A DNA stretch of 64,000 nt. Origin: Selaginella moellendorffii (taxonomy: Eukaryota > Plantae > Lycopodiophyta). The stretch covers positions 219,477 to 283,476 of the forward strand of contig NW_003314359.1 of NCBI RefSeq assembly GCF_000143415.4, given 5' to 3'. The position numbers and the translations under genes were made by a program. The notes under the pieces are model-generated. The model did no database searches. It was given only the letters and a program-made list of their open reading frames with translations, and was not told the DNA's origin. Below, piece by piece: positions 1 through 57,259 of the stretch. Every line of letters begins with the position of its first letter. Within the stretch, counting starts at the first letter, position 1.

Positions 1-1158
1 CTCCCACCCAAGGCCCCTCGGCCCCAGTCTCAACCTCAAGTCAGTTTGGAAGCACCACTGGAGAGTTCCTTCAAGACTGGTTCCTGGACCTCACTATCCC
101 TATTATACTTTTGGAACCCCCTGCAGCCCCCCCCCCCGGGAAAAGCACGCTTTGGGCTTNNNNNNNNNNNNNNNNNNNNNNNNNNNNNNNNNNNNNNNNN
201 NNNNNNNNNNNNNNNNNNNNNNNNNNNNNNNNNNNNNNNNNNNNNNNNNNNNNNNNNNNNNNNNNNNNNNNNNNNNNNNNNNNNNNNNNNNNNNNNNNNN
301 NNNNNNNNNNNNNNNNNNNNNNNNNNNNNNNNNNNNNNNNNNNNNNNNNNNNNNNNNNNNNNNNNNNNNNNNNNNNNNNNNNNNNNNNNNNNNNNNNNNN
401 NNNNNNNNNNNNNNNNNNNNNNNNNNNNNNNNNNNNNNNNNNNNNNNNNNNNNNNNNNNNNNNNNNNNNNNNNNNNNNNNNNNNNNNNNNNNNNNNNNNN
501 NNNNNNNNNNNNNNNNNNNNNNNNNNNNNNNNNNNNNNNNNNNNNNNNNNNNNNNNNNNNNNNNNNNNNNNNNNNNNNNNNNNNNNNNNNNNNNNNNNNN
601 NNNNNNNNNNNNNNNNNNNNNNNNNNNNNNNNNNNNNNNNNNNNNNNNNNNNNNNNNNNNNNNNNNNNNNNNNNNNNNNNNNNNNNNNNNNNNNNNNNNN
701 NCAGCCCCCCCCCCCCTGGGAGACGCACGCTTTGGGCTTTCACCCCTTGACCCGTATTAGTATTTGGACTTAGTCTCTGGCTCGGTCTCGGACCCGATTT
801 CGGATCCGACTTCGGATTCAGTCTCGGACTCGATCTCGGACTCGATCTCGGACCCGACCTCGGACTCGACCTCGGACTCCGTCTCGGACCCGATTTCGGA
901 TCTCGGACTCCGTCTCGAACTCGGTCTCGAGCTCGGACTTCGTCTCGAACTCGGTCCCCGAGTCGGTCTCGGACTCGTTTCGAACTCGGTCGCCGAGTCG
1001 GTCTCAGACTCGTTTCCGGACTCTATCTCGAACTCGGTCCTAGAGTCGGTCTTGGACTCGATCTTTGACTTGGTCCCATCCGATGAACTCTTTGTCATTT
1101 TGGTCATGCTTTTGGGGTTCCTTTAACCTACGACACCTCGACGAGTTGGTTCCTTACA
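1..1158 (-). repeat. 3' LTR of family A element (partial; contains N gap 160-701)
   Basis: Near-identical to about 7010-7593. Begins TGTAAGG on minus, directly after the PPT GGGTGGTGGAGT (1159-1170). Contains a poly-C tract and TCGGAC-type hexamer arrays. Confidence 0.95.
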
Positions 1159-1942
1159 ACTCCACCACCCATAGAAGAAGTTCGATGCCCACATCGAACG
1201 TCTTGTTTTATCCTACGATTTATTGACCATGTCTCCGGGGGCATCCCCCCACTTAGCGGTGTGCCTAAGTTAGCCTCCCCGGCCAAGAGCCCATGACAAT
1301 GGAATATAGGTGTCCCTATACCCCTCACGTCACCACGCCCTAGTATGGGGTCGGGACTTGAACCCAGCCTTGCTTTACTAGGGGTTTGGGACTTGAACCC
1401 AACCTCCGTAGAATACGTCTACGGATGCGACATCCCCGCGGGGAGTCAGGCGTAGTGCCCTACGCCTGGTCGACCTATCCAACCCATGCTAACTAGTTAC
1501 CTTCGGCGCGCTTTCGGGTCCCAACATATGCCACTTGCTCAACTTTGCAAATTGATATTTTTAATTGAACTTTGCATAAGTACATAGAGTTCTGCCTTGC
1601 AGAAATTCCTCCACTAGATCTCGCGTGTTCGCTAGGTTCTCCTCCGGTTCCCATGTTGCTTCGCAGTGTGGAAATCCTTTCCACTTCACATGGAACTCTC
1701 TCACCTCGCGTCCTTGTCACTTGCTCTTGCGCGCATTGAGGATGGCCTCGACTTCGTATTCCTCTTCCCCTTGGATAACCTCAGGTAATGGTCTCACTTG
1801 GTCCTTGTGAAGCAGATCCTCAAAGTATGGCTTGAGTAAGTTCAAGTGGAACACTGGGTGCATCTTCCCCATCTCTCGAGGAAGTCGGAGTCGGTAAGCC
1901 ACTTTACCGATTCGTGCCTCAATCTCGTAAGGCCTCGTGAAC

Positions 1943-1994
1943 CTGCTTAAGGAACTCAAGATCAATTCATTTACAGGAATACATGCATCTTTAC
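1943..1994 (-). other. 52-nt GT-AG intron-like insertion just before the GPY/F-like motif of integrase
   Basis: CAAAG|GTAAAG...TTAAGCAG|GTTC. Removal gives KLTQRFTRPYEI. Confidence 0.85.
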
Positions 1995-2412
1995 CTTTGG
2001 GTCAACTTTCGGCTGATCCCACTTGGTAGTCTGAGGTTCTTGGTGTTCAGCCACACCTTCTCCCCAGCTTGGAACTCTACATCCCGACGCTTCTGGTTCA
2101 CGTATTTGGTTTGCCTTTGTTGAGCCCGTTCCAAGGAATCCCTCACTAGATTCCAAATGCTGAGTCTTTCCGCCGTGAATGCCTCCACTCCGGGCAACTC
2201 TCCATGATACTCGGCCACGCCGAGTTCCACAGGACCTTCAATAGCTCGCCCATTGATGACTTCCCATGGACTCACCCCGATACTCGAATGTGGTGAGTTG
2301 TTATAACACATTTCTGCAAGTCCCAAATGACTTACCCAATCGGTCTGGTCTCCCGAGACATAGCATTGCAAATAATCCTCCAGCTGCCTATTCACCCTTT
2401 CCGTTTGTCCGT

Positions 2413-2458
2413 CTGTCAAGAAGTGTTAGTGCCAACAACTTGACTTAATACCCCATAC
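2413..2458 (-). other. 46-nt GT-AG intron-like insertion in integrase core
   Basis: ACAG|GTATGG...CACTAAC...TTCTTGACAG|ACGGA. Removal gives YHPQTDGQTERVN. Confidence 0.85.
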
Positions 2459-5400
2459 CTGTCTGTGGGTGATAGGCTGTGCTAAATTTCAACTTGGTGC
2501 GATACTATTCCAGGAGAGTCCTCCAGAACCTACTGGTGAAGATCTTATCTCGATCTGAGATGATCTTTTCTGGTCTTCCCCGCACTCGAACCACTTATTC
2601 GAAGAATAGCTTTGCCACACCTTCCGCATCCACCTCCGTTGTGGTGGGTGTGAAATGTGCCATTTTCGAAAATCGGTCCACCACCACGAATATTGCATTA
2701 AACCCCTCGCTTGGGGGGAGTCCCGTGATGAAGTCCATCGTAAGACATTTCCACGGACGATCTGGAATTGGGATGCTTTGCAACAAGCCCCCACTAGCCT
2801 TAGTCACGGCTTTTACCTGCTGACATGTTGGACATGTCTTTACATAGTCTTGGACGTCCTTAGCCATATCTGGCCAATGGTACTTCCTCTTGAGTAAGCC
2901 CATCGTCTTGGGCACTCCACCGTGTCCCGCAAGAGGTCTGTCATGACACTCTTCTAAGGCCACCTTCCTTAGTTCCCCTTCTGGAACATACACCCTCGTT
3001 TGCTTGTAATAGATGAGTCCGTTGCATTCCGCATAGCCCGTTTTCTCTTTCGTTGGCAGCTCACCTCTTTGGTGAGCTTCCCATGCCTCTAGATTCCTCA
3101 GCAACACTTCTTGTGCTAGACCATCATTCTCATATACTGTCTGCACATCGTCCTAGAAGGTTGCTGTTGCGCTGGATATTGCCAACCTCAAGCTCGCTTT
3201 TCGACTTAGCGCATCCGCCACGATGTTGCTCTTCCCAGGCTTGTACAGAATCTTGCAATCAAACTCGGCCAAGGCATTGGCCCACCGACCTTGTTTCCCT
3301 CTTAGGTCGGGTTGTGACAAGAAGTGTTTCGTTGCCACATTGTCCGTCTAAACCTTGAAGTGTCTCCCAAGGTAGTGTCGCCACTCCTTGAGCGCCTTGA
3401 CCACCGCAAACAATTCCTTCTTGTGGGCAGGCCACTTCCGTTGAGCCTTGTCCAACTTCTTCGAGAAGAACGCTACCGGATGGTTGTCTTGCTTCAAAAT
3501 TGCGCCCAACGCAAAGTCCGAAGCATCTGTTTCTACCTCAAAGTCCTTACCAAAGTCTGGTAATGCCAATACAAAAGCCTTCCTCAACTTCCCTTTGAGG
3601 TGGACGAATGCCACCTCGCATTCCGCTGTCCACACCATCTTCCCTTTTCTTGTTTGGTCCGTTAAGGGCAGGGCTACTCTCGAATAATGTCTGATAAACT
3701 TTCGATAGTAGTTGCATAGCCCCAGGAATGCCCTCAACTCGTGTACATTCGATGGTCACTCCCATTCCTGGATCGCTTGGACCTTCTCCGGGTCCACCTT
3801 GAGCCCGTCCTGGCCCACCACATGCCCGAGAAACTTTACCTCTTGTTGAGCAAAGTCACATTTGCTCTCTTTAGCATACAGTTTGTGTTCCCTTAGTTTC
3901 TCAAACACCTTCGCCAAGTGTTCGGCATGCTCCTCTAGCGTCTCGCTATAGATCAGGATGTCGTCGATATAGACGACCACGAAGTGATCCAGATAGGGTA
4001 CAAAGATGTGGTTCATTAGCGCCAAAAACGTTGCCGGCGCATTACATAGCCCGAAGGGCATCACCAGAAACTCAAAGCTCCCATACCTCGTTCGACAGGT
4101 TGTCTTCTCGACATCTTCCTCGGCTACCCTGATCTGGTAGTATCCTGACCTTAGGTCAATCCTCGAGAAGTATTTTGCCTTTCCCAACCTATCAAACAGG
4201 TCCTCAATCCTTGGCAAAGGGTATTTGTTCTTCTTTGTATACTTGTTGAGCAACCGATAGTCCATGCACATGCGCATAGATCCATCTTTCTTTTTCACAA
4301 ATAACACCGGCGCCCTATACGGCGACTTGCTCAACCTAATATACCCTTTTTCCACCAACTCCTCTAGTTGGCACTTGAGCTCCTTGAGTTCTTTTTCGTT
4401 CAAACGATAAGGGGGACGAACCACCGCCTCAGCACCCTCGACCAGCTCAATCTTATGTTCTATCGGTCGTGCTGGGGGCAGCCCCGCTGGTAGCTCCTCC
4501 GGCATGGTATCCTGGAATTGGTCCAACACCTACTGGATCACTAAAGGTACTTCTTCCGTTCCTGTCTTTTTGTCACTCTTCACCGAGAGTAAGCACAAAA
4601 AGGCTGCCTTAGTTCCTTTAGTGAGTTGTCCTCTCGTGGACACCAGGTTTAAGCAGGAATCTTTGGCCTTGCTTTGCCCTACCTTTAGATCTTGGGCCTC
4701 CACCCTAGATCTTCTTCCTTGGGCATTCGCCAGTACCACAAGGTTCCTACCTTGTCCATGCAAGGCTACCACGAACCGATTGAACCAATCCATTCCGAAG
4801 ATCACGTCAAACCCCGCCATGTCCAACACAGTGAAATCCATGTCTACCTTCCAAGTTCCCACTTCGACTCTCGCTTGTCGAAGTACCTCATTGGTGCTTT
4901 GGCTACCTTGAACAAACTCTATAGTCCTTGGTTCGCCTAGCCGCTGCACCGTTAGTCCGGCTTGCCGGACTATGTCTGCAGCCACAAAATTATCCAAAGC
5001 ACCCGTGTCAATAAAGATCTTAACAAAGCTACCTCCGAGCTTCCCTCGGAGGGCTAGTAGATGTCGCGAACGACTCTCTACCAAAGTTGCTCGTGTAATG
5101 AATAACTTTGAGTTAGGGACTGGATCACATATCTCAGTTTGGACTTCACCCGACTTGATGGCCATATTAGCTCTGGCCTTCTTCGGGTAGGGACATTCCC
5201 TCGAAAAGTGTCCCGCTTCACCGCAGTTGTAGCATACGTTGTTTCCCACGCTGCTATATGACTTGACCTTCTTATCCGTGGGTTTGTCTCTTTTCGCTTG
5301 ACTCCCCCACGTACTCGCTCGCTGGCCACCGGATTTGCCTTTCCGGAACCTCGAGGACTCATTCTTAGAGAAACTCTTCTTGAATTTCCCTCTGCTAAAT

Positions 5401-6375
5401 GTTCCCCTTGGTTTGGCCCCTTTGCTAAACGTGGATCCCGACTTCGTCGTGTTCCCCTTTCGCAGGTTATCGTTGAAATGCACCTTGATGGCCGCATCCA
5501 ACGCTTCCTTGTAGTTAGTCGGGTTCCACCGCATCACTTCACCGCGAGCCCAGGTTTGCAAACCTGATATGAAGGCATGGAACGCATCTATATCCCCCAT
5601 GTCCGTGACAAGTATCCTCTTTGCCATAAACCCATTCACATACTCCTGAATGGTTCCGGTCTGCTTCAGCCTACTCAGCTCATCCTTTAGATGCAGAGTA
5701 GCATTCGGAGGAATGTAAGTTGCGCGGATCCTCACCTTCATCATTTCCCATGTGGCCACCAGTCCTTCGTTGGCCTCTGTTGTTCTCCACCAAGACTTGG
5801 CATTATCTGCCAAGTATGGTTTTGCACATGGGACCTTCTCCGAGCTCGGTAATCGCAACGCTCGGAAGTAGTCCTCCATATCATAAAACCAATCCTCCAC
5901 CACATTATAGTCGTTCACTCCCTTGAAAACCAGTGGGGGCTTTGGTTTGTACTTGGGAACTGCCTGAGGGATTAATTCCACTTCGGTCTATTCGACCTTG
6001 TCTGGTTTTGCCTTAGTCCCTGCCGAAGGGTCCGCACCTTCTGCGCTGCTAGCATCCACAGTCTTTCGCTTTTTCTTCCGCTTCTCATCACGCTTTAGCT
6101 TGTGTACGAGAGTCTCCAGCAGGGCATTGGTCTGTGCCAATTGTCCTTCTAGAATGTCCAATCAAGCCTTGGACAACCGAACCTCACCATCAGACTCCTG
6201 TTTGGAAATTGCCTCACTGGAGTTCTCCTTATGCAAGGGTTCCTCATCCATAGCCTTTTGTTCGACCGGAGGCTCCAGCTCTGGAGGAGGTTCCGTCTTT
6301 GCCTGGGTTCGCTTATGTCCTGCCCTTGCCATCTCCCAGCAATCCGCCTCTATCCTTCGCTAGAACTGAGGAAGA

Positions 6376-6388
6376 GGCTCCAATACCA
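6376..6388 (-). promoter_or_regulatory. primer binding site, initiator tRNA-Met type
   Basis: TGGTATTGGAGCC, 3 nt inside the 5' LTR; resembles the common TGGTATCAGAGCC. Confidence 0.75.
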
Positions 6389-6391
6389 AAT

Positions 6392-7593
6392 TGTAAGCCA
6401 CAAATTTTTCCTTTCCAATTTGCCAGCTTACCTCGTCTATCCGACCAACTCTGCCTTGGCTTGTGCTAAGTTCCCTCGCCAAGGTTCCCGCCTATGGTAC
6501 CAGCTCCTACTTGGTCCTACTTGGTTTCAGCTACTCACTGCACGAGCAACGGAGTGTTAGCCATCCATCTACGGATTCCCAAATCTCTCCCAATCCCCCT
6601 CCTCGGGTTAGACTGGACTTAAGGTTTGGCTACACTCCCCGCAGGCACAAGCAGCCAAGCACACCAAGCCTCTAAGTTCCTAACACCCCTTGGGACCACA
6701 AGACTTGATTATGGGACCCTCTAAATCCCAAGTCTTGGGTGCAGCACTTGCTTCGGGACGTCGGGGCGAAACACCGTGGCCTAACGGCCCAGTATGGGTA
6801 CCTCTACCCCCCCACTTCCATCCCAAAGGGAAGGCCCAAGCCCCTAGGAAGGGCAAGGACTAATGAGCCACAAGGTACTCAAGTGGGGCACCGCTCCACA
6901 TGAGCCGGGAGCACCGCAGTCAGTTTCCCTTTCGGGAGTGGGAGCTGCTCTTGAGCACTTCCTTGGGTGGCCCCTCCGGCACCACTCAAGCCCATGCTCA
7001 CTCCCACCCAAGGCCCCTCGGCCCTAGTCTCAACCTCAAGTCAGTTTGGAAGCACCACTAGAGAGTTCCTTCAAGACTGGTTCTTGAACCTCACTATCCC
7101 TACTATACTTTTGGAACCCCCTGCAGCCCCCCCCCCCCTGGGAGACGCACGCTTTGGGCTTTCACCCCTTGACCCGTATTAGTATTTGGACTTAGTCTCT
7201 GGCTCGGTCTCGGACCCGATTTCGGATCCGACTTCGGATTCAGTCTCGGACTCGATCTCGGACTCGATCTCGGACCCGACCTCGGACTCGACCTCGGACT
7301 CCGTCTCGGACCCGATTTCGGATCTCGGACTCCGTCTCGAACTCGGTCTCGAGCTCGGACTTCGTCTCGAACTCGGTCCCCGAGTCGGTCTCGGACTCGT
7401 TTCCGGACTCTATCTCGAACTCGTTTCCGGACTCTATCTCGAACTCGTTTCCGGACTCTATCTCGAACTCGGTCCTAGAGTCGGTCTTGGACTCAATCTT
7501 CGACTTGGTCCCATCCGATGAACTCTTTGTCATTTTGGTCATGCTTTTGGGGTTCCTTTAGCCTACGACACCTCGGCGAGTTGGTTCCTTACA
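6392..7593 (-). repeat. 5' LTR of family A element (1202 bp)
   Basis: TGTAAG...CTTACA terminal inverted repeats; homologous to 1-1158 and, inverted, to 44497-45659. Confidence 0.95.
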
Positions 7594-40673: not shown

Positions 40674-43600
40674 TCAAAGTTCTCTTGTAGACGGGCCGGG
40701 ATCTGGAGGAACATCAGGAGGAGGCATCGGCAGATTTGTAGATGGTATTAATCGCTCCTGATCCCTTTGTATGAAGCGTTTCAACTGCTGCACATGCACA
40801 ATCTCTGGAGGATCGGCTTGCTGGACGTCATGCCGAACCTCATAAACTTGTGGTCCAACTTGCCACAACACTTGATACAGTCCTTTCCACTGTGTAAGGA
40901 GCCCCTTAGATAAACCACGTACTGTAAGATGGGGAAAACGGACTAACACCAAATCATCCACTTTGTACTTTGCAAGTGGACGATGACAGGAGTTGTAACG
41001 CTGTTGTTGTCCCACTTGTACGCGGCCTAAGTATTCAGCAGACTTTGCTCGGACAAGTGGAAGAATGCTTGTCAAATATTGATCCCATGACCTAGCATCC
41101 GCAGCTCGTGGCAATCGCAAAGGTAAACCTAACTTCATTGGTAATATTGGATCATGACCATATAAGAGTTTATATGGTGAAGCATCAATAGAACTCTGCA
41201 CCCCAGTGACATATGCATACCGAAGAGATATCAAATAACTATCCCAATCCGAATGCTGAAAGTTCACATACTTCGCAATCATCCCCTTGAACATCTGAAC
41301 GAGTCGATCCACCAAACCGTCTGATTGTGGATGATAATCATTTGTGAAAATGTGGTGAATCCCCAACCAAGACGTCAAAACATGAAATGCCTCAACCATA
41401 AATGTGGGACCATTATCCGAAAGAATCCGCTCTGGACAAGAATGCGGGAACACCACTTGATTGAGGAGGAAGTATCCAATAGCAGTTGAAGAGGCGCTAG
41501 CAAGAGCACCAACTTCCACCCAATGAGTCAAGTAGTCAGAACCAATAATAACATATTCATTGCCAGCAGTCGACCGTGGAAAAGGTCCCATAAGATCAAA
41601 CGCCACCAACTCAAACGGACGGGAAACTGCAATTGACTCCAACTGTTTTTCCGCAGCCCGAGGGGGAGTATTACGAGCTTGGCACCAAACGCAGCTATGC
41701 ATATACCGGATAATATCACGTCGCATCTTTGGCTAATAGAAAGACCTGCATAGCTTCTCGATTATACGACGATGTCCCATATGCCCACCTAGAACAGGAG
41801 AATCATGGTAGGCATGGAGAAACCACAGAATAAAGATAGAAGGCACCACCAGCCATAAATGATCATCAGGATTTGTCCCCACAAAATAAAGAAGGCCATC
41901 TTCAAGATGATATTGAGAATGTAAATGCCGGAAAGGCAAGTCATCAGCAAGTGATGTAGAATTCTCAAACCCATCTCAAAGCCTTTGAATCCATGGCTCA
42001 ATCTTTTGAGCCTCACGAACCTCATCAAGCAAAGGTAGACGTCTAGAAAATCCACAGATGCTGGAATGACAAGCTCGTCAGAAACATGAGAAGAGAGTGA
42101 AGAAGGAAGAGGAGTTTGAGAAAGGGCATTAGCATCAGCTATAGAACTCCCTAGGCGGTGAACAACATCAAAATCATATATCTGAAGTTTCAAAGCCCAC
42201 CGAGCAGTACGACCAACCAGGTTCTTCCGCTTTAATAACAAAGTAATAGTAGCATGGTCACCTTCAAGTAATGTCTGAGAGCAATGTAGATATGCATGAA
42301 GTTTCTTGAAACCCTAGATTGCTGCTAAACACTCCTTTTCTGTCGTAGAGTAGTTCATTTCTGCTAGTTGTAATGTACGGCTTATATATGCAATGGGATG
42401 GCGCTGACCAGGCACACTCGAGCTCTCTTGCATTAACACACATTCAAGACCAATGTCAGAAACATCCACGCGCAAAATAAAAAGTCGAGTGTAGTCAGGA
42501 TATGCCAAAACCGGAGGAATTGTCAATAACTCTTTGAGATCCCCAAACGCCCGCTCACAACCCGGAGACCAAATGAAAGATGACGTTGATGATTTCAGCA
42601 ATGTTTGCAATGTTGCAGTGCGATCAGAAAAATGATCCACAAAACGCCCGAGATATTGCACCTTGCCCAAGAAGCGCTGGACATCATTCACACACTTCAG
42701 AGTAGGGAACTTCAGAACAGCCACAAGTTTGTCAGGATCAACTTGCAAACCCTCATGAGAAATACAGTACCCAAGATAAGTTGTGTCCTTGGATCCAAAC
42801 ACGCACTTTGACCACTTCAGCTTTAAACCAACATCATGTTGCCGATCTAACACTTTGCAAACATCACGAATGTGCTCCTCCCACGTCCCCTCCGAGTGGA
42901 TCAAGACATCATCAGTGAAGTCAACAGTCATCTCTAGCATATCGCAAAGAACCTTATCCATTATCCGTTGAAAAGTTGCTAGAGCATTGTTCAAACCAAA
43001 TGGCATCACCAAGAACTCATACAAACCAAATGGTGTACGAAAAGCAGTCTTAGGAATATCTTCTTCGGCCATCGGTACTTGGCAGTACCCAGAAGCAAGA
43101 TCTAGCTTGGTGAACCAACGACTTCGCCCCAGACGATCCAAGAGATCAACAGTGTGAGGAAGAGGGTACACATCCAGGATCGATAGTCGATGCAGAAACA
43201 AATACTCCCATTAGGCTTCATCACAAGATGAGGTTCACATGCCTAAGGACTCCGTGATTTCTGAATAACACCCTTCTCCAACATCTCCTTGACATTTGCA
43301 CGTAAAATCTTGATCTCCTTTGGTGACTGATGACGAACAGGAACCTTGATTGGACGAGCATCCCTAGTTGGAATCGGATGATGTGTGGCAATCTTGGCTC
43401 CAGACGATATGTCAAAGTCAAAGAGATCAGAATACTCCTTCATAAGCCGGTCAACTGCTGCAACACAAAGATCGTTGAAGGGATGGAAAAGGGAAGAGCA
43501 GAACAAGATAGAAATATAGGAGGAAAGAGTGGGGAAACAAAAGTAATGGAAGCAGAGGTAGAAGTAGAGGGACAAAGAGGTACGGAAGTGAGAGGAATGG

Positions 43601-44490
43601 ATGAAATGTAAGGAAGTATAAGACAAGGGGGAGAAACCTCAAAGTCACACTTGGCATGATTGCGCTGCAACCAATTCATACCAAGAATGAGGTAAAAAGC
43701 TTGACTTGGCACCACCCGCAATGACTGCAACTCAAGCTTGAGATCGCCCACACGCACAACCAAGTCTGCCTCATCCCGTGCACATGCATGTGTACGGCTG
43801 TTGCCATAAAGAATGAAAACTGGTTTTGCCGCACAACACAAGTGTAGACGACAACGTGTGGTAACAGGTCAAGCAATAGAAGATAAACTTGAACCTGTAT
43901 CAACCAACACAGAGAGAATAATAGGAGACTTCTTATTATAAAGATGAGCTTGGAAAGTAAACACTGGATGAACTGGTGCCGAGTGAACCCTTTGATGATA
44001 CTCCCGAAAGAAGGATGGAGGGGTCACTGGCTTATTCGTGCAAGGTCCCTCCGTTACTCGCGCGACTCCTCGTTTCCCGGATGCATCTCGGTGTCCAAAC
44101 CATCCATTGCAGCAGCACCAATGGGATGTTGCTGACGCTAAGGTCTCCACCCAGGAAATGGAGGTCGCCAATCCGGAAAACGCTGACAACGCCGATAAGT
44201 ATGACCAACTTCATCAGATGCCCAACAGCAAACATCACGGCCACAACCACGTCCTCGCCCTTGAACTTGGACTCGAGTAGCAATAGCATCAACCTCCATT
44301 GGAACAGGACCATCACCCACAGGAAGTGGAGCTGAAGGACATGCAACGAAAAGTGGAAGAGGCAATGTCTCATAACGTTGTGCCAAGCGAAGAGCATTGT
44401 CAAGGGTGGCGGGAGCAAGTGCATGCACAAGTCCGACAAGATCTTGACGAAGTGCTGGCCACAACATTCCTTGCTTGATCCGCTTCGACA
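40674..44490 (-). pseudogene. decayed gag-pol of family C element
   Basis: Integrase ORF 40674-41726 (FDLMGP, SDNG, YHPQSDG). RT/RH 42314-43201 (KLDLASGY, MPFGL, FTDD). Protease LVDTGSS near 43890. PVPMEVD and a degenerate knuckle near 44200-44300. Stops and frameshifts throughout. Confidence 0.92.
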
Positions 44491-44496
44491 TATTTG

Positions 44497-45659
44497 TGTA
44501 AGGAACCGACTCCCCGAGATGTCGTAGGCTAAAGGATCCCCAAAAGCTTGACCGAAATGACAAAGAGTTCATCGGATGGGACCAAGTCGAGGATCGAGTC
44601 CAAGACCGACTCTAGGACCGAGTTCGAGATAGAGTCCGGAATCGAGTCCGAGACCGACTCGGGGACCGAGTTCGAGTCCGAGTTCGAGACCGAGTTCGAG
44701 ACGGAGTCCGAGATCCGAAATCGGGTCCAAGACCGAGTCCGAGGTCGAGTCCGAGGTCGGGTCCGAGATTGGGTCCGAGATCGAGTCCGAAATCGAGTCC
44801 GAGACCGAATCCGAAGTCGGATCCGAAATCGGGTCCGAGATCGAGCCAGAGACTAAGTCCAAATACTAATACGGGTCAAGGGGTGAAAGCCCAAAGCGTG
44901 CGTCTCCCAGGGGGGGGGGGGGGGGGGGGGGGGGGCTTCAAGGGGGCCCCAAAAAGTTAGTAGGGATAGTGAGGTCCAGGAACCAGTTTTGAAGGGACTC
45001 TCCAATTGGGCTTCCAAACCGACTTGAGGTTGAGACTGGGACCGAGGGGCCTTGGGTGGGAGTGAGCATGGACTTGGCTGGTGCCGGAGGGCCATCCAAG
45101 GAAGTGCTCAAGAGCAGCTCCCACTCCCGAAAGGGAAACCGACTGCGGTGCTCCCGGCTCAGGTGGAGTGGTGCCCCACTTGAGTACCTTGTGGCTCATT
45201 GGTCCTCGCCCTTCCGGGGGCTTGGGCCTTCCCTTCGGGATGGAAGAGGGGGGGTAGAGGTACCCATACCGAGCCGTTAGGCCACGGTGTTTCGCCCCGA
45301 CGTCCCGAAGCAAGTGCTGCACCCAAGGCTTGGGATTTAGAGGGTCCCATGATCAAGTCTTGTGGTACCAAGGGGTGTTAGAAATCTGGAGGCTTGGTGT
45401 GCTTGGCTGCTTGTGCCTGTGGGGAGTGTAGCCGAACCTTAAGTCCAGTCTAACCCGGGGAGGGGGATTGGGAGAGATTTGGGAATCCGTAGATGGATGG
45501 CTAACACTCCGTTGCTCGTGCAGTAAGTAGCTGAAACCAAGTAGGAGCTGGTACCATAGGCGAGAACCTTGGTGAGGGAACCTAGCACAAGCCAAGGCAG
45601 AGTTGGTCGGATAGGCGAGGTAAGTTGGCAAATTGGAAAGGAAAATTTTGTGGCTTACA
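44497..45659 (+). mobile_element. solo LTR of family A
   Basis: TGTAAG...CTTACA, inverted homolog of 6392-7593. Perfect 5-bp TSD ATTTG at 44492-44496 and 45660-45664. Confidence 0.95.
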
Positions 45660-45819
45660 ATTTGGCTCCGCACGAAGAAAAAGGCTTCGGAAACGAACAC
45701 CAAATTGCATCACTGACTCAGATGGCCCTTAGCGAAGACAATGCAATTGTTGGAAAGCATCATCACAGTCATCGGCATATCCGAAGGCGTGTTTGAAAAC
45801 ATCCAGAAGAACACTCTAA

Positions 45820-48800
45820 TGTAAGCGACTAATTTTTCCATTCTACTTTAGTCACTTAACCACACATTTGACCACTTGGAGGGGTCTCATTCACAACCTC
45901 CTGAAGTCCAATTCAGGACTTGGGACTTGCTAGCCCCGAGGATGGCATCTATGCCACTCATCCCTTGCACTTAGTCCAAGTGCTCCACATGTCTGGTCCC
46001 AAGACTGACACCCAAAGGTACCACTGACATATTGGCCCGTTATGCTAAGGCTATGCCCATTCACCTTTGCACTAGTGGTCCAATACCACTTGCATCACAA
46101 TCCCGTCTCTCCAAGACTGGGCCAACCATCCGTGAGTGGTCATCCCAGATCCACTCCTTAGCATCCTTAGGATGCCTATTGACAAGGGGAACAACCTTCC
46201 CCAATATCCCTCTGTTAGTCCCCACTAGGTCCCGTTTTGCCCTTGGACGTGTTTGCCAACACTGCCACTGGATCGAGGCCCACAGGCCTGACCACTAATT
46301 CCCATGGTCCTCTAGGACTTCCTCACCACATGACCGTATCCTTGGCCACCACACCAAAGGACTGCTCCTTTCCCTTTCCATAGTCTGGGACTTGGGGACA
46401 ACACTTCAGAACACTGTGGCCTTATGCAAGCCACCTGGGTACTCTCCCCGCCTTCTGCCTTTGGGTGCTCTAGCCATGGGCTTAGAGCAAGGTTCCGTTG
46501 AGCCACGCTTGGTATCCAAGTAGGTAGTGCCACCCACACTTGGACTGGGAGCATCGGCCAATCGATCTCCCGGGGGAACTAGAGCCAGCTCTTGAACACT
46601 TCACCAAGCTACCCCGCTTGTCAGTCCGTATTCACTCTAGTCTTGGACTTCCCAGTGGTCAGTTCATCACCCAACACTGGGTCTGGCCTTCCTAGGCCAA
46701 ACTGGCCTTTCCTGGCCAAACTGACTCCACTGTAATCCTCCCCCTTACTATACTTTTGGAGCTCACCAAACCCCCCAGGGTCTGGGAGACGAACGCTTTG
46801 GGCTTTCACCCTCTCAGACTCGGACTCGGACTCGGACTCGGGCTCGGTCTCAGCCTCGGCCTCGGTCTTGGTCTCGGTCCCGGTCTTAGTCCCGGTCTCG
46901 GTCCCGGTCTCGGTCTCGACCTCGAACTCCATCTCAGGTCCTTCTCGGACTCCATCTCGGATTCCATCTCGGGTCTATCTCGGACTCCATCTCGGGTCCA
47001 TCTCGGACTCCATCTCGGTCCATCTCGGACTCCATCTCGGACCCCGTCTCGGACTCCATCTCAGACTCCATCCCGGACTCCATCTCGGACTCCATCTCGG
47101 ACTCCACTTCGGACTCCATCTCGGACTCCACTTTGGACTCCACCTCAGACTCCATCTCGGACTCTGTCTCGGTCCATCTCGGACTCCATCTCGGACTCCA
47201 CCTCAGACTCCACCTCGGACTTCATCTTGGACTCCAACTCGAGTCCATCTCAGACTCCATCTCGGACTCCATCTCGGACTCCATCTCGGACTCCAACTCG
47301 GGTCCATCTTAGACTCCATCTCACACAGTTCCACATGTCATGTGTTGGTCCTTTTGGGTCCCTTTTTGGAGTCTCACTTATTGCTCTCTTCGTGCTTGTT
47401 CCTCGAGCACTTTGTTGGAAGTTCTACTCCCGCTCTCGACCTTCCAAGTCGGAGCTTTTAGTCCAAACGTGTTACGCTTGTTTGGCTTTCATTTCGGCCA
47501 CTACCATGTGGCACCCTTTCCAGCTCCACTTTGGGACCTAGGGATTTTGTGTCTCACAACTCCACCACCCATAGACGAAGTTCGATGTCCTCATCGAACA
47601 GTAAACCCTTTTATAAAGTAACACCCGCAGGTATTACCATTCCCATCCTTGGCACCCGGCCAATATTTGTCTATGGTTTGACCCCGAAGGCTCACCATGC
47701 CTTGTCCATCCTCTAAGGAGGATAGTCTCTCCAAGTTAGAGATTGATTGGACCACTTGTGTTGGTGGTTTTTTCCTTTTATTGGTTTAGTTCTCGCTAAA
47801 CTTGTTAGAGACACCGTCTCTATCTCAATCCCACTACTCCATCTTGAGTAGTTTCAATTTTCATCGATATAACCTTTGCACTTTGGAACGTTTACTTTTG
47901 ACTTCTTGAAGTCAATTTTCCTAAGCGTCTCCGACACCTTACATTGCACATATTGTGCAAGTCCACTTCCCTATCCTAGGAAGTTCTTTACTTGAAGGCA
48001 CCATCATCCTCTTTTCTATTTTGTGCCACCCTTGGCACTACATTCCAATTATCATCATTTGTGCCAGGGCTGTCTACGGCCCTATCCTTTGGCTACTTTG
48101 CCGCTCCTCACTTGGAGCTTTTACTTCGCCAAATTGGAGCACTTGGGAATCTATCCTTGGAAGTCCACTTCCTTTTCCGCAATCGATTAGCATCAAACAC
48201 ATTTGTGTTCCTTGGCTAACTTTGCCATTTGGATTCCTTCCCATGATTCCCATGGCTCTTTTCTTGGCCACTAGTCTTTTGCTCCTATCCTTGATTGTTG
48301 CACCCAGCAACATAGGATCGCTACCTCCATTTTTGAGGTTTCCTTTCGATTCCATAGCAAACACTTTGCTTTGCCAAGTCCAGAGGGTGTTCACCCCTAG
48401 TACGTCTCTTTAGCATTTTCTGTTGTGGGCTCTATCCACGGCCCAACTTTTTGAGACCCTCCCTTGGATCTCTTATAGAGACTACTTTCCTTGGACTTAC
48501 TATGCCATAGCATTGACATAGCTCATTTCCCTTAGGTGTTCTTCCCACTTGGTCACCTCGACCAAGCCACACCTTTATCAATAGTTCAAATTAACACTTT
48601 GAACTAGGAATGATATTCCTTAACCCAAATAAAGACTTTGTCCTTGTTTAGCCACAAAATCACCTAGTGATCTCATCTTGACCCCTTAATAGGTCTATCA
48701 ATAGGAACTAGATCTTCCAGACCCTTCTAAGTTGTTGACTATGACCCCGAGGGCATCCCCCACACTCGGCAGTGCGCCCAAGCCAGCCCTTTCAGCCAAG

Positions 48801-51800
48801 GATCCATAGCAACTGAGACTTGGGTGTCCCCATCTCATTCACCACGTCCTTGGTGCCCTTTGCACCAAAGTGTTCAAGTTAGATATGCCGAGCTTTCACT
48901 CTAAGCAATCTAACTGTGCATCACGACTCCGAGGCATCCCTCGCTTGGCGGTGTGCCCAAACCAGTCCCCTCACTGAGAGTCCATGACCACCGAAATATG
49001 AGTGTCCTCATATTCCAAACCATCACCACGCCCTAGTGATTTGGGACTCGAACCCAAGCACTAGAGGGTCGGGACTCGAACCCAACCTCCGTATATGTAT
49101 CTACGGACGGCATCACCCTAGATGTCTGGTGTGACTCCCCACGCCGGTGCACCAACTTATACTTAAAGTGCGTTACAGATCACAGCTTAGGAACCTAGTT
49201 CCTCCACATTGCCAAGTCCTCTCACTTGACAAGTCCGTGATCATGCATGGACTCCTCCATGCTTGGCCCCATGGCCCACCCTTTTTGAAGTAATCACCTT
49301 CAACTAGGGTATTCGTTCCCCTGACTTGCCAATCTCGTTTGGCAAGTCCTCCGACCACTGTAACATGGTTCCTGCATAAGCGTGAAAGTCTTTGACCATC
49401 GACTTTCGTTCAAAGCCCTCTCTTTGAACACTCGGGAACTACTTCCCTAACCTTGATAGCCTTGCCTCATGGCAAGCTTCAAGACCACGCTTCTGCTGCG
49501 CCACTCTGATTTCGTGCGTTCCATGAACCATTTACACTTTGCCTTTCTAGGTACTAAATTACCTAGAATCATCTTTGGGAACCTTGAAGGAACTTTGTCC
49601 CTTAGCTTGCTATGGCCTCCCTTTTCGCAAGCTTTATAGTTGCTATATAGTCTAATATGGACAATTCCATATTTTAGACTGTCCATGGCCTCACAGTTGC
49701 TAGCAACAACATCCTCGAGCACCCTCTTGATTCTCCACTCCCAACTTGCATAACCACCATTGGATATGCCCTTCAATTTCTATGGTTTAATTCTATCCCA
49801 ATACTACTTGCCTTTTGGCCCCATATGTTTCCTTTGGTTATTCTCCTCCAAACTAGGAGGATAGCTTTGCACATTTTACTATGCCTTAGCAAGTATGCTT
49901 AGGGATGAACCTACCCGATAGCCTAGGGAGTGGTTCCTCAATCTTGGGCATGCTCACTTTATAATCCCACACACCGGGGTTAATGTTACTGCTTATGGGC
50001 CTTTACATGCCCATCACTAGCCTTGCCAAAATTCCATTTTTGGCTTTGTCCAATTCGGGTAGACAGTCTTCTCTTGTCTCCACAATATTGGACATTTGGA
50101 TAGCACCTTCTATCCATCATTCATTAAGGACTTAGTCCCTTGGGCCTTATCTATTGCCCTTGCGACATGAAACACCACCTCCTGGTGTTCTAGAGTGTTT
50201 GGGTGTCCCAATGATGGCCTCCGGACAATGAGCATTCCCGTTTACGACATTGACTTACTATATCGCAACATAAGCAATTTATCCTCTGTAAGGGTATATT
50301 TAACTTCCTTATACCATTAAGAAGTCTTGAGTAGCTACCTTCTACCCGTTTAACCAATTATATTGCACATCTTGCTTAGTTGCCTCATAGCTGTCAAGTC
50401 CTACAACTCATTGCTTGGTGCTTCCACACCTCCATCATTATCTGGGTCACCACACTTCAACCGCATGCCTTCCAGCTTAGGCCATGCCTTTCCCGCTTCT
50501 GTTGGGATTCCCTTGGCAAGGGGTTCTTATGAACCCACCATCATAACCTCAAGGTATCACACCTTGGCATATTTGGTGTCTCCACACCATCGGCCCCACG
50601 AGCCTACCCTTATGACACTACTTATTAGTGTCTAGATCTTTGCCAAGACCAATATAATTGTTCCTCATACTAACTATTCGTTAGCACTGCACTATAGTGC
50701 TTGTACCCAACTCTGGGCCAAAGTTGCTTTTTTCTGGGAACATCTTTCCCACAACTTTAGTATGGCATATTCGGCCATTAATGAGATACCTACTATTCTC
50801 ATACTTGGATCTTATGATCCTCCCCATACCTCATGGGGCACCATACACCTTAGTCAAATGCTTCAACCAATCCTTTAGGACCATTACCTGACTCCGCTTG
50901 AGTCATCTAGCATTTTGGACTTTGCTAATCCAACAAACTGTGAGGTTTCAGTCTTAGAGGTGCCAACTCACTGGAATACAACTTCTTGTATTCATGTCCT
51001 ACTCATAAGAACAATCTTTGCAAGTGTTACTCTGACACTTGATGATTTTCTTGGGGCTAACCTTTGCCCCTTAGGACCACTTGTCCATGTGATGAGAATA
51101 CCAACTCATCCTCTAAGTACACCCTCACCTCCTTGGGTTGTTCTAGCATTTATTAGAGGTAGCTCCGACTACCATTTCAAGGACTTGTGTCCTTTTCCGT
51201 ATTTGACCTCTCGCGGTCATTACTTCTGGTCTCACATTCATGAGCACCCACCTCAAATATATGAGGATAATCTTGTGACTCTTTTATTGTTTTGGAGTCT
51301 TTATCTTTCCCGTGATCCTAACTATAGTTGTTTACCACAATTACATTAGCCAGTTTGCAAAGTCAAATCCTCATCTGGATCACATCCTCAACTCTATGAA
51401 GAAACCTTTATACTGTTCCCAAGATCCCAAAGTTGTTCCCTTACTGGCCCTTTTTCCATCCACCACATCGTGCGCAAGTTCATGCATGAACTTGAGTGGA
51501 GAGCCATGTCTTTTCGACATGCTACTCCTCGAAGATAGGTCCATATCTAGGACCCTCCGATTCCAATACAAGCAGTGATATACTTGGCCACTAATAAGAG
51601 TCAGATTAAGGAACAACTCCGATACCAAGTTATAAGCGACTAATTTTTCCATTCTACTTTAGTCACTTAACCACACCTTTGACCACTTGGAGGGGTCTCA
51701 TTCACAACCTCCTGAAGTCTAATTCAGGACTTGGGACTTGCTAGCCCCGAGGATGGCATCTATGCCACTCATCCCTTGCACTTAGTCCAAGTGCTCCACA

Positions 51801-53212
51801 TGTCTGGTCCCAAGACCGACACCCAAAGGTACTACTGACATATTGGCCCATTACACTAAAGCTATGCCCATTCACCTTTGCCGCACTAGTGGTCCAATAC
51901 CACTTGCATCACAATCCCGTCTCTCCAAGACTGGGCCAACCATCCGTGAGTGGTCATCCCAGATCCACTCCTTAGCATCTTTAGGATGCCTACTGACAAG
52001 GGGAATAACCTTCCCCAATATCCCTCTGTTAGTCCCCACTAGGTCCCGTTTTGCCCTTGGACGTGTTTGCCAACACTGCCACTGGATCGAGGCCCACAGG
52101 CCTGACCACTAATTCCCATGGTCCTCTAGGACTTCCTCACCACATGACCGTATCCTTGGCCACCACACCAAAGGACTGCTCCTTTCCCTTTCCATAGTCT
52201 GGGACTTGGGGACAACACTTCAGAACACTGTGGCCTTATACAAGCCACCTGGGTACTCTCCCCGCTTTCTGCCTTTGGGTGCTCTAGCCATGGGCTTAGA
52301 GTGAGGTTCCGTTGAGCCATGCCTGGTATCCAAGTAGGTAGTGCCACCCACACTTGGACTGGGAGCATCGGCCAATCGATCTCCCGAGGGAACTAGAGCC
52401 GGCTCTTGAACACTTCACCAAGCTACCTCACTTGTCGGTCCGTATTCACTCTAGTCTTGGACTTCCCAATGGTCAGTTCATCACCCAACACTGGGTCTGG
52501 CCTTCCTAGGCCAAACTAGCCTTTCCTGGCCAAACTAGCTCCACTGTAATCCTCCCCCTTACTATACTTTTGGAGCTCACCAAACCCCCCAGGGTCTGGG
52601 AGACGAACGCTTTGGGCTTTCACCCTCTCAGACTCGGACTCGGACTCGGACTCGGGCTCGGTCTCAGCCTCGGCCTCGGTCTCGGTCTCGGTCTCGGCCT
52701 CGGCCTCGGTCTCGGTCTCGGTCTCGGCCTCGGCCTCGGTCCCGGTCTCGGTCCCGGTCTCGGTCTCGGTCCCGGTCTCGGTCCAGACCTCGGACTCCAT
52801 CTCGGGTCCTTCTCGGACTCCATCTCGGGTCCATCTCGGACTCCATCTCGGGTCCATCTCGGACTCCATCTCGGACTCCATCTCGGTCCATCTCGGACTC
52901 CATCTTGGACCCCATCTCGGACTCCATCTCGGACTCCATCCCGGACTCCGTCTCGGTCCATCTCGGACTCCATCTCGCACACTTCCACGTGTCATGTGTT
53001 GGTCCTTTTGGGTCCCTTTTTGGAGTCTCACTTATTGCTCTCTTCGTGCTTGTTCCTCGAGCACTTTGTTGGAAGTTCTACTCCCACTCTCGACCTTCCA
53101 AGTTGGAGCTTTTAGTCCAAATGTGTTACGCTCGTTTGGCTTTCGCTTCGGCCACTACCATGTGGCACCCTTTCTAGCTCCACTTTGGGACTTAGGGATT
53201 TTGTGTCTCACA
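45820..53212 (-). mobile_element. non-autonomous LTR element (family B, LARD-like), related to family A
   Basis: LTRs 45820-47558 and 51631-53212. TSD TCTAA on both sides. PBS TGGTATCGGAG at 51617-51627. PPT identical to family A at 47559-47570. The 4-kb interior has no recognisable pol, only a possible eroded gag knuckle near 49330-49375. Confidence 0.92.
46816..47321. repeat. 6/12-bp GC-rich tandem array (GACTCG, GGACTCCATCTC) in family B LTR; shorter variant at about 52630-52977
   Basis: Direct reading; source of the low-complexity pseudo-ORFs. Confidence 0.9.
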
Positions 53213-54611
53213 TCTAATCCCTGCGAGTGGCTGCTCCCAAACCGTTGTACCACTACAACGCTGTCCCTTGGAGACACATGGGAAACTCACACAAACGTCA
53301 AGCATCATCCCAAGAATGATATGTGGCAATCACCGTAAAGTGATTGAACCAATGGTACACATCATCCCCAGGATTTCTGCGAAAGAACTCCATCCAAACG
53401 TAAGGATTGGCACCAAGAGCAGGATGAGTTGTACCATGTGCCATGAATGCCGCTATCAATTGAGTTTAGTTGTTCAATTGCAAGCGCATAGCATCAAGCA
53501 ATTGTACCAATTGCTGCTCCAGAGTCAAAAGAGGAGATTGTTGATCTGCCATAGAGACGAATGAAAAAGAAAGAGCAAAAGAAGAGAAATGACAAAAAAG
53601 CTAGAAGGAAATGGTAGATCTAGACAATGCAAAAAGCTAGATCTAAACCAAAGTTCTGAAAGGAAAGAACAAAAGAAAGGAAATAGAAAAAACTAGATCT
53701 AAACAATACAAAAGTTAAATCTAAACTAAAATCCCAAATCCAAACACTCCCTAGGGACAATCAAAAGTGCCCCTCACCTCCACCAATGTGAGTGCATGGA
53801 ATATAGAAAGGGAATACAGAAATGTGCATATCAATTAGCCCAAAAACCCTAATTTATATACAAGAGCGAGTGGTTCGAATTAAAACCAATCCGACCGCTA
53901 CCAAAATCCCACTACACTAATATTAGTATATAGCATCGTAGCCGTACACTTAGCCCTCACATGTAAATATATTCTTAAATAAATAAATAAATAAATTACA
54001 ATCGATTTGAATAATAAGCAATATTAATTAATAACAATCCTTGAGGTCCAATTTCACAATTATATATTATCAAATTACCATTATTTATTAAAATAACTAG
54101 ACAATGTTCATAGTAGTCATTAAACTAAAAATAAACCTAAATACGTTAATACTAAGTTTAATGAATTCTTTTATCATAAATAAAACATAAATAAACTTTT
54201 ATATCAATTTACAAAGATGGCAATATTAATAACATGCATATATTTACATTATGTTTTACAATAATTTTATATTTATTGCAAATTTGTGAACTATGTTTAT
54301 TGTGATGTACAGATTAAAGATGGTTTTGCATGATTCTATTTGCGTAAACCATGTTTATGTTAATTGTGAACAAAATGTGAACCATCGCAATTGTAAAGGT
54401 GGCATATTGCAAATTAACATATGTGTACAAACTATTATTAACATATTGTCGAACTAAATTTCTAAATATATTTGCATCAATTTACAAGGATACTTTAATT
54501 GGACAAAAATATTTTCAAATGAGTTATGTTTAGGTTTATATGATTAAATTAAAATTTAAAAACAGTGCATTGTACATTTATGTATGTTCCTGGATCAGAT
54601 TAAAGATGAGT

Positions 54612-55441: not shown

Positions 55442-57259
55442 ATGAGCCGGAAGAGCAGGGTGGATTGGCTGGCCTCCACCCTGCGATCGTGTTCCAGCGC
55501 CCGGGATCTGGCCAGGGGGAGAGAGATCCACTCGCGGATCCTCGCCAGCGACGAGGACAGGGGCAGCGTCTACCTCGCCAATCTCCTCGTCCAGATGTAT
55601 GGCAAATGCGGGAGCGTGGAGGAGGCCCAGTCGGCGTTCGACGCCATCGCGCAGCCCAATCGCTTCTCCTGGAACATCCTCCTCCAGGCGTATGCCCACA
55701 ACGGGCACCACGACCGCGCGTGCGAGATCTTCGACCGCGTCGCGTCGCCCAACTCGGTGTGCTGCACCAGCATGATCACCATGTACGCGCAGCTCGGGCG
55801 AGTCGGCGACGCGCAGGCGGTCTTCAATCGCCTGCCCAGCCCGGACTTCGTCTCCTGGAACGCGCTCCTCGCGGCATATGCCTCCAACGGGCATTTGCAG
55901 CGGGCGGTGGAGGTGTTCGCGAGGATGGGCGAGCACAGCGTCGTGTCGTGGACCACGCTGCTCCAGGCCTACGCCCTCTCCGGCCGGATCGACGAGGCCG
56001 GGCGCCTCTTCGACGCCATGCCGGAGAGGAACGCCATCTCCTGGAACGCGATGCTCGCCACCCAATGCCGCGGCGACGACCTCGAGCGATCCAAGGCGAT
56101 TTTCGACGCCATGCCGCTGTGGAGCGCGCGATCCTGCAACTGTATGATCACTGCGCTCTCAGACGCCGGCTGCGCCGATCTCGCGCAGTCCCTCTTCGAA
56201 GCCATGCCCGAGAGGACGACGGTGTCGTGGAACGCGCTCATCGCCGCATTCGCCATGGCCGGGCGGGCCGGCGACGCGAGGGCGTGCTTCGACGCCATGG
56301 CGGAGGAGAGAAACCTGGCGACCTGGAACTCGCTCCTACTAGGGCTCGTCCAGGCGGATGATCGCCTCCACGACGCGCGGGGGATATTCGACAGGATGCC
56401 GCGGCGGGACGTGGTGGCATATACCACCGTGATGTCGGGATATGCCCGCGCGGGAGATTTGAACGAGGCTGGGGCGGTGTTCGATTCCATGCCCGAGCGG
56501 GACACGGTGGCCGGGACGAAGCTGATGGCGGCATATTCCCAGAACGGGCGTGTGGACAGCGCGGAGATCCTCTTCCGTACCATGCCCGCCCGGGACATTG
56601 TCTCCTGGAACACACTGATTGGGGGGTACGGACAGAACGCCAGGGCCGACGACGCGCGGTCGGTCTTCGATCGGATGCCCGCGCGGAGTAGCGTCTCCTG
56701 GAACGCGATGATCGCGGCGCTGGCGCAGATTGGCCGGTGCGGCGAGGCGCGGGCTGTCTTCGAATCGATGCCGGGGAGGGATTCCCTGTCTTGGAACGGG
56801 ATAATCTCGGGCTACTCTAGCTCCAGCGATGGTCGCCGCGGCGCGATCGATGCGCTCCGGGGCATGGCGCTGGACGGATCGCGGCCGGACAGGGTCACGT
56901 TCTTGGCTGTTCTTGGCGCTTGCACAAGCTCGGGGTCGCTGGGCGAGGCGCTAGAAATATTTGGGTTGATCCGGGATCACGGCCTGGATCCGGCCCCGGA
57001 GCACTTCTCGTGCGTGGTGGACATGCTGGGGCGATCGGGGCGGCTCCGCGAGACGCAGGATCTGATTGAGCAGATGCCCGATTTGCCGAGCCAGTCGCAG
57101 TGGGCAAGCCTGCTCAGCTCGTGTACCATCCACCGCGACGTCAAGCTCGGCGAGATCGCGGCAAGGAGAGTGTCGGAGAACGCATCGGAGGCAGGCGCGG
57201 CACGGATTTCTCTGAGGAACATCTACGCGGTGGCTGCCACTTCTCTCCAATCACGGTAA
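55442..57259 (+). CDS. PLS-class pentatricopeptide repeat protein with E-type C-terminus, no DYW
   Basis: Intronless ORF of repeated A..FD.MP.R..VSWN.MI motifs, ending EHFSCVVDMLGRSG...W.SLL.SC..H.D. An alternative upstream ATG lies at 55385. Confidence 0.93.
   Translation: MSRKSRVDWLASTLRSCSSARDLARGREIHSRILASDEDRGSVYLANLLVQMYGKCGSVEEAQSAFDAIAQPNRFSWNILLQAYAHNGHHDRACEIFDRVASPNSVCCTSMITMYAQLGRVGDAQAVFNRLPSPDFVSWNALLAAYASNGHLQRAVEVFARMGEHSVVSWTTLLQAYALSGRIDEAGRLFDAMPERNAISWNAMLATQCRGDDLERSKAIFDAMPLWSARSCNCMITALSDAGCADLAQSLFEAMPERTTVSWNALIAAFAMAGRAGDARACFDAMAEERNLATWNSLLLGLVQADDRLHDARGIFDRMPRRDVVAYTTVMSGYARAGDLNEAGAVFDSMPERDTVAGTKLMAAYSQNGRVDSAEILFRTMPARDIVSWNTLIGGYGQNARADDARSVFDRMPARSSVSWNAMIAALAQIGRCGEARAVFESMPGRDSLSWNGIISGYSSSSDGRRGAIDALRGMALDGSRPDRVTFLAVLGACTSSGSLGEALEIFGLIRDHGLDPAPEHFSCVVDMLGRSGRLRETQDLIEQMPDLPSQSQWASLLSSCTIHRDVKLGEIAARRVSENASEAGAARISLRNIYAVAATSLQSR

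Follow-up and report, generated by a model that had tools for sequence, protein, structure and literature searches.

Loss of introns is a textbook mark of retrotransposition and forms the basis of standard reporter assays. The stretch of DNA analysed here (the window; 64,000 nt from Selaginella moellendorffii) contains an LTR retrotransposon with two short, AT-rich inserts in its integrase coding region, each bounded by GT...AG in the sense orientation. This locus raises the question of whether the inserts are introns, whether they belong to the element's family or only to this copy, and how they might have been kept by an element that replicates through RNA.

Structure of the element and state of the window copy

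The element occupies positions 702-7593 of the window on the minus strand, with a coding span of 6332-1561. Its Pfam domains are arranged as gag-PR-RT-RH-IN-SH3-chromodomain and lie between LTRs accompanied by a primer-binding site (PBS) and a polypurine tract (PPT), the organization of a chromovirus of the Ty3/gypsy class. Its features, in the order in which they would be transcribed and followed by a related solo LTR, are as follows.

6392 to 7593, minus strand: 5' LTR, TGT...ACA, about 1.2 kb, with tandem repeats of 12-nt period and a 12-G tract
6376 to 6388, minus strand: primer-binding-site-like sequence of 13 nt, which we take to be of the tRNA-Met type
2459 to 6332, minus strand: exon 1, encoding gag (CCHC), protease, RT, RNase H, the integrase zinc finger and the first two catalytic Asp residues
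2413 to 2458, minus strand: insert 1 (candidate intron 1), 46 nt, phase 1, GT-AG, with CTAAC, a TAA at 2447 and the boundary repeat GACAG
1995 to 2412, minus strand: exon 2, encoding the catalytic Glu and the remainder of the integrase core
1943 to 1994, minus strand: insert 2 (candidate intron 2), 52 nt, phase 2, GT-AG, with a NAGNAG acceptor, a TAA at 1993 and the boundary repeat AGGT
1561 to 1942, minus strand: exon 3, encoding the SH3/GPY-F region (PF24626, 1.2e-13) and the chromodomain (PF00385, E 1.4e-12)
1159 to 1170, minus strand: polypurine-tract-like sequence directly ahead of the 3' LTR
702 to 1158, minus strand: 3' LTR, interrupted by the assembly gap 160-701
44497 to 45659, plus strand: solo LTR of the SM1-Galahad family (see below), 5.4% mismatch to the 5' LTR, ATTTG on each side

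The initial annotation of this locus had described the inserts, of 46 nt (2458-2413) and 52 nt (1994-1943), as GT...AG-bounded in the sense orientation, of length 3n+1 and each containing an in-frame TAA, and all of these observations were confirmed, the stops lying at 2447 and 1993. It had also called the inserts the only frame breaks of the gag-pol gene, which holds for frameshifts but not for stop codons, as nine further in-frame stops are present, eight in exon 1 and one (1719) in exon 3. Because of these nine stops, the window copy could not itself have produced an integrase-bearing polyprotein; it is a dead relic, and the mechanism proposed below concerns the family while it was active. 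Two of the nine, the stops at rows 2597 and 3154, fall within the 40 variant sites listed out of 468; they differ from approximately 99% of the family's sequencing depth and are, therefore, private to the window copy.

The two LTRs of the element differ at 13 of 457 positions, only slightly less than either differs from the solo LTR (17/416 and 19/416). The 5-nt ATTTG on both flanks of the solo LTR, which together with these flanks covers 44492-45664, is what an insertion made by integrase would leave, with the caveat that the bases following the LTR in the element itself also start with ATTTG, so that one coincidence is involved. A simple motif search of the 5' LTR for TATA and poly(A) signals found none. 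The LTR arrays of 12-nt period (755-1079 and 7177-7505) differ in copy number and can be read through in several frames of both strands, and an LTR piece at 1-159 duplicates the sequence at 702-740 across the gap of Ns, representing either a poly-G assembly overlap or a second LTR copy.

Several other repeats share the window. A second LTR element on the minus strand (~45790-53300), with approximately 4% mismatch between its LTRs, has the PPT region and a 3'-UTR-like sequence in common with the element under study; no gag-pol was detectable within it (278 proteins compared by tblastn, lowest E 3e-4), and it is probably a non-autonomous relative. A decayed Gypsy element (~40674-44600), with the solo LTR at its upstream end, has an open integrase core without such inserts. 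Three tandem copies of a block, 98-100% identical and including inverted pieces, extend over ~8100-30000 and carry what we take to be single-exon transporter-like and 2-oxoglutarate dioxygenase-like genes, while repeats of 93-nt period at 55637-56806 resemble a PPR-type gene.

Family identity and distribution of the inserts

A 2012 survey described SM1-Galahad, a Galadriel-related Ty3/gypsy chromovirus of Selaginella moellendorffii, with hundreds of copies of 95% mean identity and a multi-copy consensus (PMC3350952). In that survey, the element is ~7.5 kb long, with LTRs of >1 kb, TG...CA ends, a tract of 11-25 G and a 13-nt Met PBS, and its consensus comprises ORF1 of 3885 bp (1295 aa) without a chromodomain, a second ORF of 316 bp and a third of 309 bp with the chromodomain (PMC3350952). 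The window element comes from the same host, in line with a neighbouring host protein whose cluster has five members, three of them named as S. moellendorffii proteins, and it is of similar build (7.6 kb, LTR of 1.2 kb, G12 with G26 in the solo LTR, and a 13-nt PBS). Its first ATG opens a frame of 3885 nt (1295 aa) that ends at the TAA of insert 1, an ATG-started ORF ending at the TAA of insert 2 spans 318 nt, and the last ORF spans 309 nt. The agreement of 3885/318/309 nt with the published 3885/316/309 bp implies that the SM1-Galahad consensus carries both inserts. By these features, rather than by comparison with the consensus sequence, the window element is SM1-Galahad. The treatments differ in that the survey reads the gene as three ORFs, and its text contains neither of the strings "intron" and "splic" (PMC3350952). 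The family is already named, and what is new, within the literature searched, is the intron reading of its ORF breaks; no description of introns in SM1-Galahad or in any LTR-element integrase was found in the open-licence literature.

DNA depth provides a second and independent line of evidence. From one DNA run (X1), which is not necessarily the source sample of the window, 62,212 contigs were placed on positions 1200-6500. Relative to the median, depth was 0.985 in the bin containing insert 2 and 0.986 and 0.897 in the bins containing insert 1, compared with ceilings of 0.71 for the former and 0.85 and 0.89 for the latter had the inserts been private, although the bin 2439-2615 is a weak test (0.897 observed vs a private-insert ceiling of 0.887). 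Depth inside insert 1 was 217,223, a figure that is not a copy number, as against 214-683 for the listed joints made by one or two contigs. Of 106 joints, the 15 with the strongest support include no 46- or 52-nt skip (joints being under-counted), and neither of the two indels of at least 5% share is such a skip (differences likewise being under-counted); the listed joints extend to single contigs at a depth of 214.

Across the 4.8 kb of coding span there is one common indel, a +1 variant located in insert 1 and carried by 17 contigs and 7.7% of depth; exons 2 and 3 contain no indel of at least 5% share in this run. The chance of a +1 indel landing in insert 1 is 0.02 over the coding span and 0.095 if everything beyond the first TAA were free to vary. 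This tolerance of an indel in insert 1, with none of that share in exons 2-3, was counted in support of the intron reading.

Both inserts are, then, family-wide on two independent lines, DNA depth and the published consensus ORF lengths, and they have accordingly survived the amplification of the family. The initial annotation had set its intron reading against insertions private to this copy and acquired after integration. The degenerate state of the window copy and its position between assembly gaps would suit such insertions, or assembly artefacts, but the flat family depth, the 17 contigs sharing a variant inside insert 1 and the matching ORF lengths are contrary to them, and this explanation, which we regard as extremely improbable, was rejected.

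Splice signals and the integrase junctions

On the sense strand, insert 1 reads CAG/GTATGG...CTAAC...TTGACAG/ACG with a GC content of 0.41, and insert 2 reads AAG/GTAAAG...TAAGCAG/GTT with a GC content of 0.35. In 50-nt windows the coding span has a mean GC content of 0.50, and windows as GC-poor as the inserts make up 6% (insert 1) and 0.3% (insert 2). The branch-like CTAAC reported earlier for insert 1 is present, with its adenosine just 14 nt before the 3' end. Only one register of each insert has GT-AG ends, out of 6 (insert 1) and 5 (insert 2) equivalent registers. When random inserts with target duplications of 0-5 nt were simulated and GT..AG was allowed in any register, a single insert had GT..AG in some register in 0.9-4.9% of cases and both inserts did so with a probability of 9e-5 to 2.4e-3; for GTR..YAG in both, the probability was at most 9e-5. 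By this simulation, the splice signals are far beyond chance expectation.

The introns of the host offer a standard for these signals; 17 of them were picked out visually from two regions of the window. By a small matrix made from them and applied with leave-one-out, the donors of inserts 1 and 2 outscore 11 and 15 of the 17 host donors, respectively, whereas each acceptor outscores only 2 of 17 and is weak, yet within the host range. The inserts share the hallmarks of U2 introns, namely GT...AG ends, host-like donors and acceptors, AU-richness and restoration of the frame, with the acceptors at the weak end. The earlier description of the inserts as close to host intron size was generous, as the host introns span 54-80 nt (median 61, n=17) and all exceed both inserts; given this, 46 nt may be near the size limit of splicing.

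Direct repeats at the insert boundaries measure 5 nt (GACAG) and 4 nt (AGGT) and were weighed as target duplications. Host introns already show repeats of 0-4 nt, a range that the inserts barely exceed, so that these repeats carry little information on the origin of the inserts. The two inserts have no similarity to each other, and no match of >13 nt, and no donor sequence, was found for either in the rest of the 64-kb window. Introners are transposon-derived repeated introns that occur as many near-identical copies in unrelated genes.

Exact removal of the inserts fits the integrase frame. Insert 1 lies four codons ahead of the catalytic Glu, and without it the second Asp and the Glu are 35 residues apart (from separate translations of the exons), which is the exact D-35-E spacing. 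Of the homologous integrases that span all three segments, 103/105 have a single residue, the split codon, between the parts corresponding to exons 1 and 2, and the motif HPQ[TS]-DGQxE occurs in 77/150 homologues, none of the 77 having a residue inserted. At junction 2, three residues separate KL from an aromatic residue in the window element as in 43/48 homologues, and protein alignments place the junction within -2 to +5 residues in 102/105 homologues, a figure that is blurred by the alignment ends. Profile scores relative to the median of 105 intact homologues were 1.02 for exon 1, 0.94 for exon 2 and 1.06 for exon 3. Exons 2 and 3 are, as far as these scores tell, without decay, although recent inserts would equally predict this.

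Related DNA bears on the age of the inserts. Among 84 related loci with 41-56% identity, obtained in part from a metagenome scan covering 5 of 64 parts, junction 1 has no extra bases in 76, is shifted by 1-2 nt in 2 and is uncovered in 6, and junction 2 is in frame in 55 (-15 to +6 nt) and uncovered in 29; an insert of 40-60 nt was found in 0/78 loci covering junction 1 and 0/55 covering junction 2. Since the covered sites of relatives lack such inserts, the inserts were gained in this lineage, and apparently they are not ancient. Searches for further family members found none with the exon 2 protein (0/205 longer and 0/25 near-length candidates) and none as DNA, with 0/161 metagenome stretches and one weak viral locus that was discarded as spurious. 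With the integrase piece of exon 1, identity did not exceed 51% in the top 120 of 864 proteins or 56% in the top 150 of 42,836 proteins, none of them a family member. The closely related sister family, SM2-Galahad, is described as having hundreds of copies, intact and intron-free, with TGT...ACA ends and one uninterrupted ORF of 1577 aa that includes the chromodomain (PMC3350952).

The existence of SM2-Galahad allows a different history, in which the inserts are frozen lesions, or introns that have ceased to be spliced, in a non-autonomous master copy that obtained its integrase in trans from the sister family. Such a master copy would make its own Gag, protease and RT, an intact and intron-free helper is at hand, and the 2012 survey reports no intact copy of SM1-Galahad (PMC3350952). 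The probable non-autonomous relative in the window, which shares the PPT, makes mobilization in trans plausible, a precedent is offered by BARE2, described as a parasite of its sister family, and the absence of intron-free copies would be explained without any extra mechanism. Against this history stand the low probabilities, given above, that two inserts of non-intron origin would both have splice-like ends, the common indel in insert 1 with none in exons 2-3, and the scores of exons 2-3, which are those of intact integrases. We regard it as unlikely, though it is the strongest of the alternatives.

Retention of the inserts and possible consequences of splicing

The reading that we favour, with moderate confidence, is that the inserts are real, weakly spliced introns, which were retained because it was the unspliced RNA that was replicated. 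Unspliced RNA would yield the Gag-PR-RT-RH polyprotein of 1295 aa, with an integrase that ends ahead of the catalytic Glu. By arithmetic, if only intron 1 were removed, the product would measure 1431 aa, with the catalytic core but without the SH3 region or chromodomain, and removal of both introns would give 1557 aa and a full-length integrase. A minor spliced mRNA would then be the source of full-length integrase, while reverse transcription would proceed from unspliced RNA. Because the introns are very short and their acceptors weak, we propose that splicing would be inefficient and that most RNA would remain unspliced and be packaged. In three RNA runs, of which ~12% each was used, 11, 3 and 0 reads fell on the element, too few to list junctions, and no spliced read was observed.

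Since the PBS and PPT would be retained in spliced RNA, intron-free copies would be expected to arise and spread. None were seen among the joints listed for the DNA run, and a mechanism that excludes them is therefore needed. In an alternative reading, the introns are real but passively retained, with splicing being rare, spliced RNA being copied too and a few intron-free copies perhaps supplying integrase. The weak acceptors and very short introns are consistent with rare splicing, and the under-counting of joints, of which 15 of 106 were listed, leaves room for rare intron-free copies. However, the listed joints include no skip of either length even at the single-contig level, and an intron-free copy would look intact, yet none was found by the 2012 survey (PMC3350952). 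Passive retention consequently appears improbable to us. Under the favoured reading, in which unspliced RNA was the replicated form, spliced RNA may have been kept from replication as in barley BARE1, through separate translated and packaged transcripts.

A more specific proposal, which we hold tentatively and somewhat short of even confidence, is that splicing acted as an integration gate. Unspliced RNA would build particles and cDNA with a dead integrase, singly spliced RNA would provide an untargeted integrase and doubly spliced RNA a chromodomain-targeted one, while spliced RNA would go unreplicated.

Known systems contain parts of this arrangement. In the Ty3/gypsy element Ogre, an intron in the spacer between the PR and RT ORFs is removed in some transcripts to give the full polyprotein (PMC6317226, PMC12786077). 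Ogre resembles the present element in that a retained intron must be spliced to complete pol, and differs in that its intron lies between the PR and RT ORFs and not within integrase. An Ogre-type intron was considered for the window element and rejected, as it has no PR-RT frameshift or spacer and its inserts sit in integrase.

BARE1 and EVADE/copia are likewise plant LTR elements with alternative splicing (PMC3735527, PMC12786077). In BARE1, the RNA that is capped, spliced and translated has no R region, packaging is confined to the unspliced pool, and a spliced DNA copy could not be amplified (PMC3735527). As these elements are described, their splicing removes pol and favours Gag and their unspliced RNA encodes complete enzymes; the logic of Galahad is reversed in comparison with BARE1, the broken integrase being encoded by the unspliced RNA. 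For plant LTR elements, a 2025 review names just two notable exceptions to intron loss, Ogre and EVADE (PMC12786077).

Outside of plant LTR elements, Penelope-like elements also keep introns after retrotransposition, but they are not LTR elements, have no DDE integrase and use another replication mechanism (PMC8557442). Cer1/CERV of C. elegans, also of the Ty3/gypsy class, is reported to make an essential protein from spliced RNA while the unspliced RNA serves as genome, but the part spliced out is the coding sequence of other genes and not a dedicated AT-rich insert in integrase (PMC10309623). Ginger/GingerRoot is described as an integrase-like DNA transposon with terminal inverted repeats and without gag or RT (PMC6839031), and this identity was rejected for the window element, which has direct LTRs, gag and RT. 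Among viruses, foamy virus makes pol from a spliced mRNA and uses unspliced RNA as its genome, the part spliced out being the coding sequence of other genes.

For annotation, families of this kind appear as "non-intact" or as several ORFs, as SM1-Galahad did in 2012. If the proposed reading is true, splicing would add a level of control over integrase dose and targeting, and the selection between translated and packaged RNA pools would be directly measurable by two junction assays. More broadly, an LTR element would be able to gain introns and to hold them, even in the catalytic core of its integrase.
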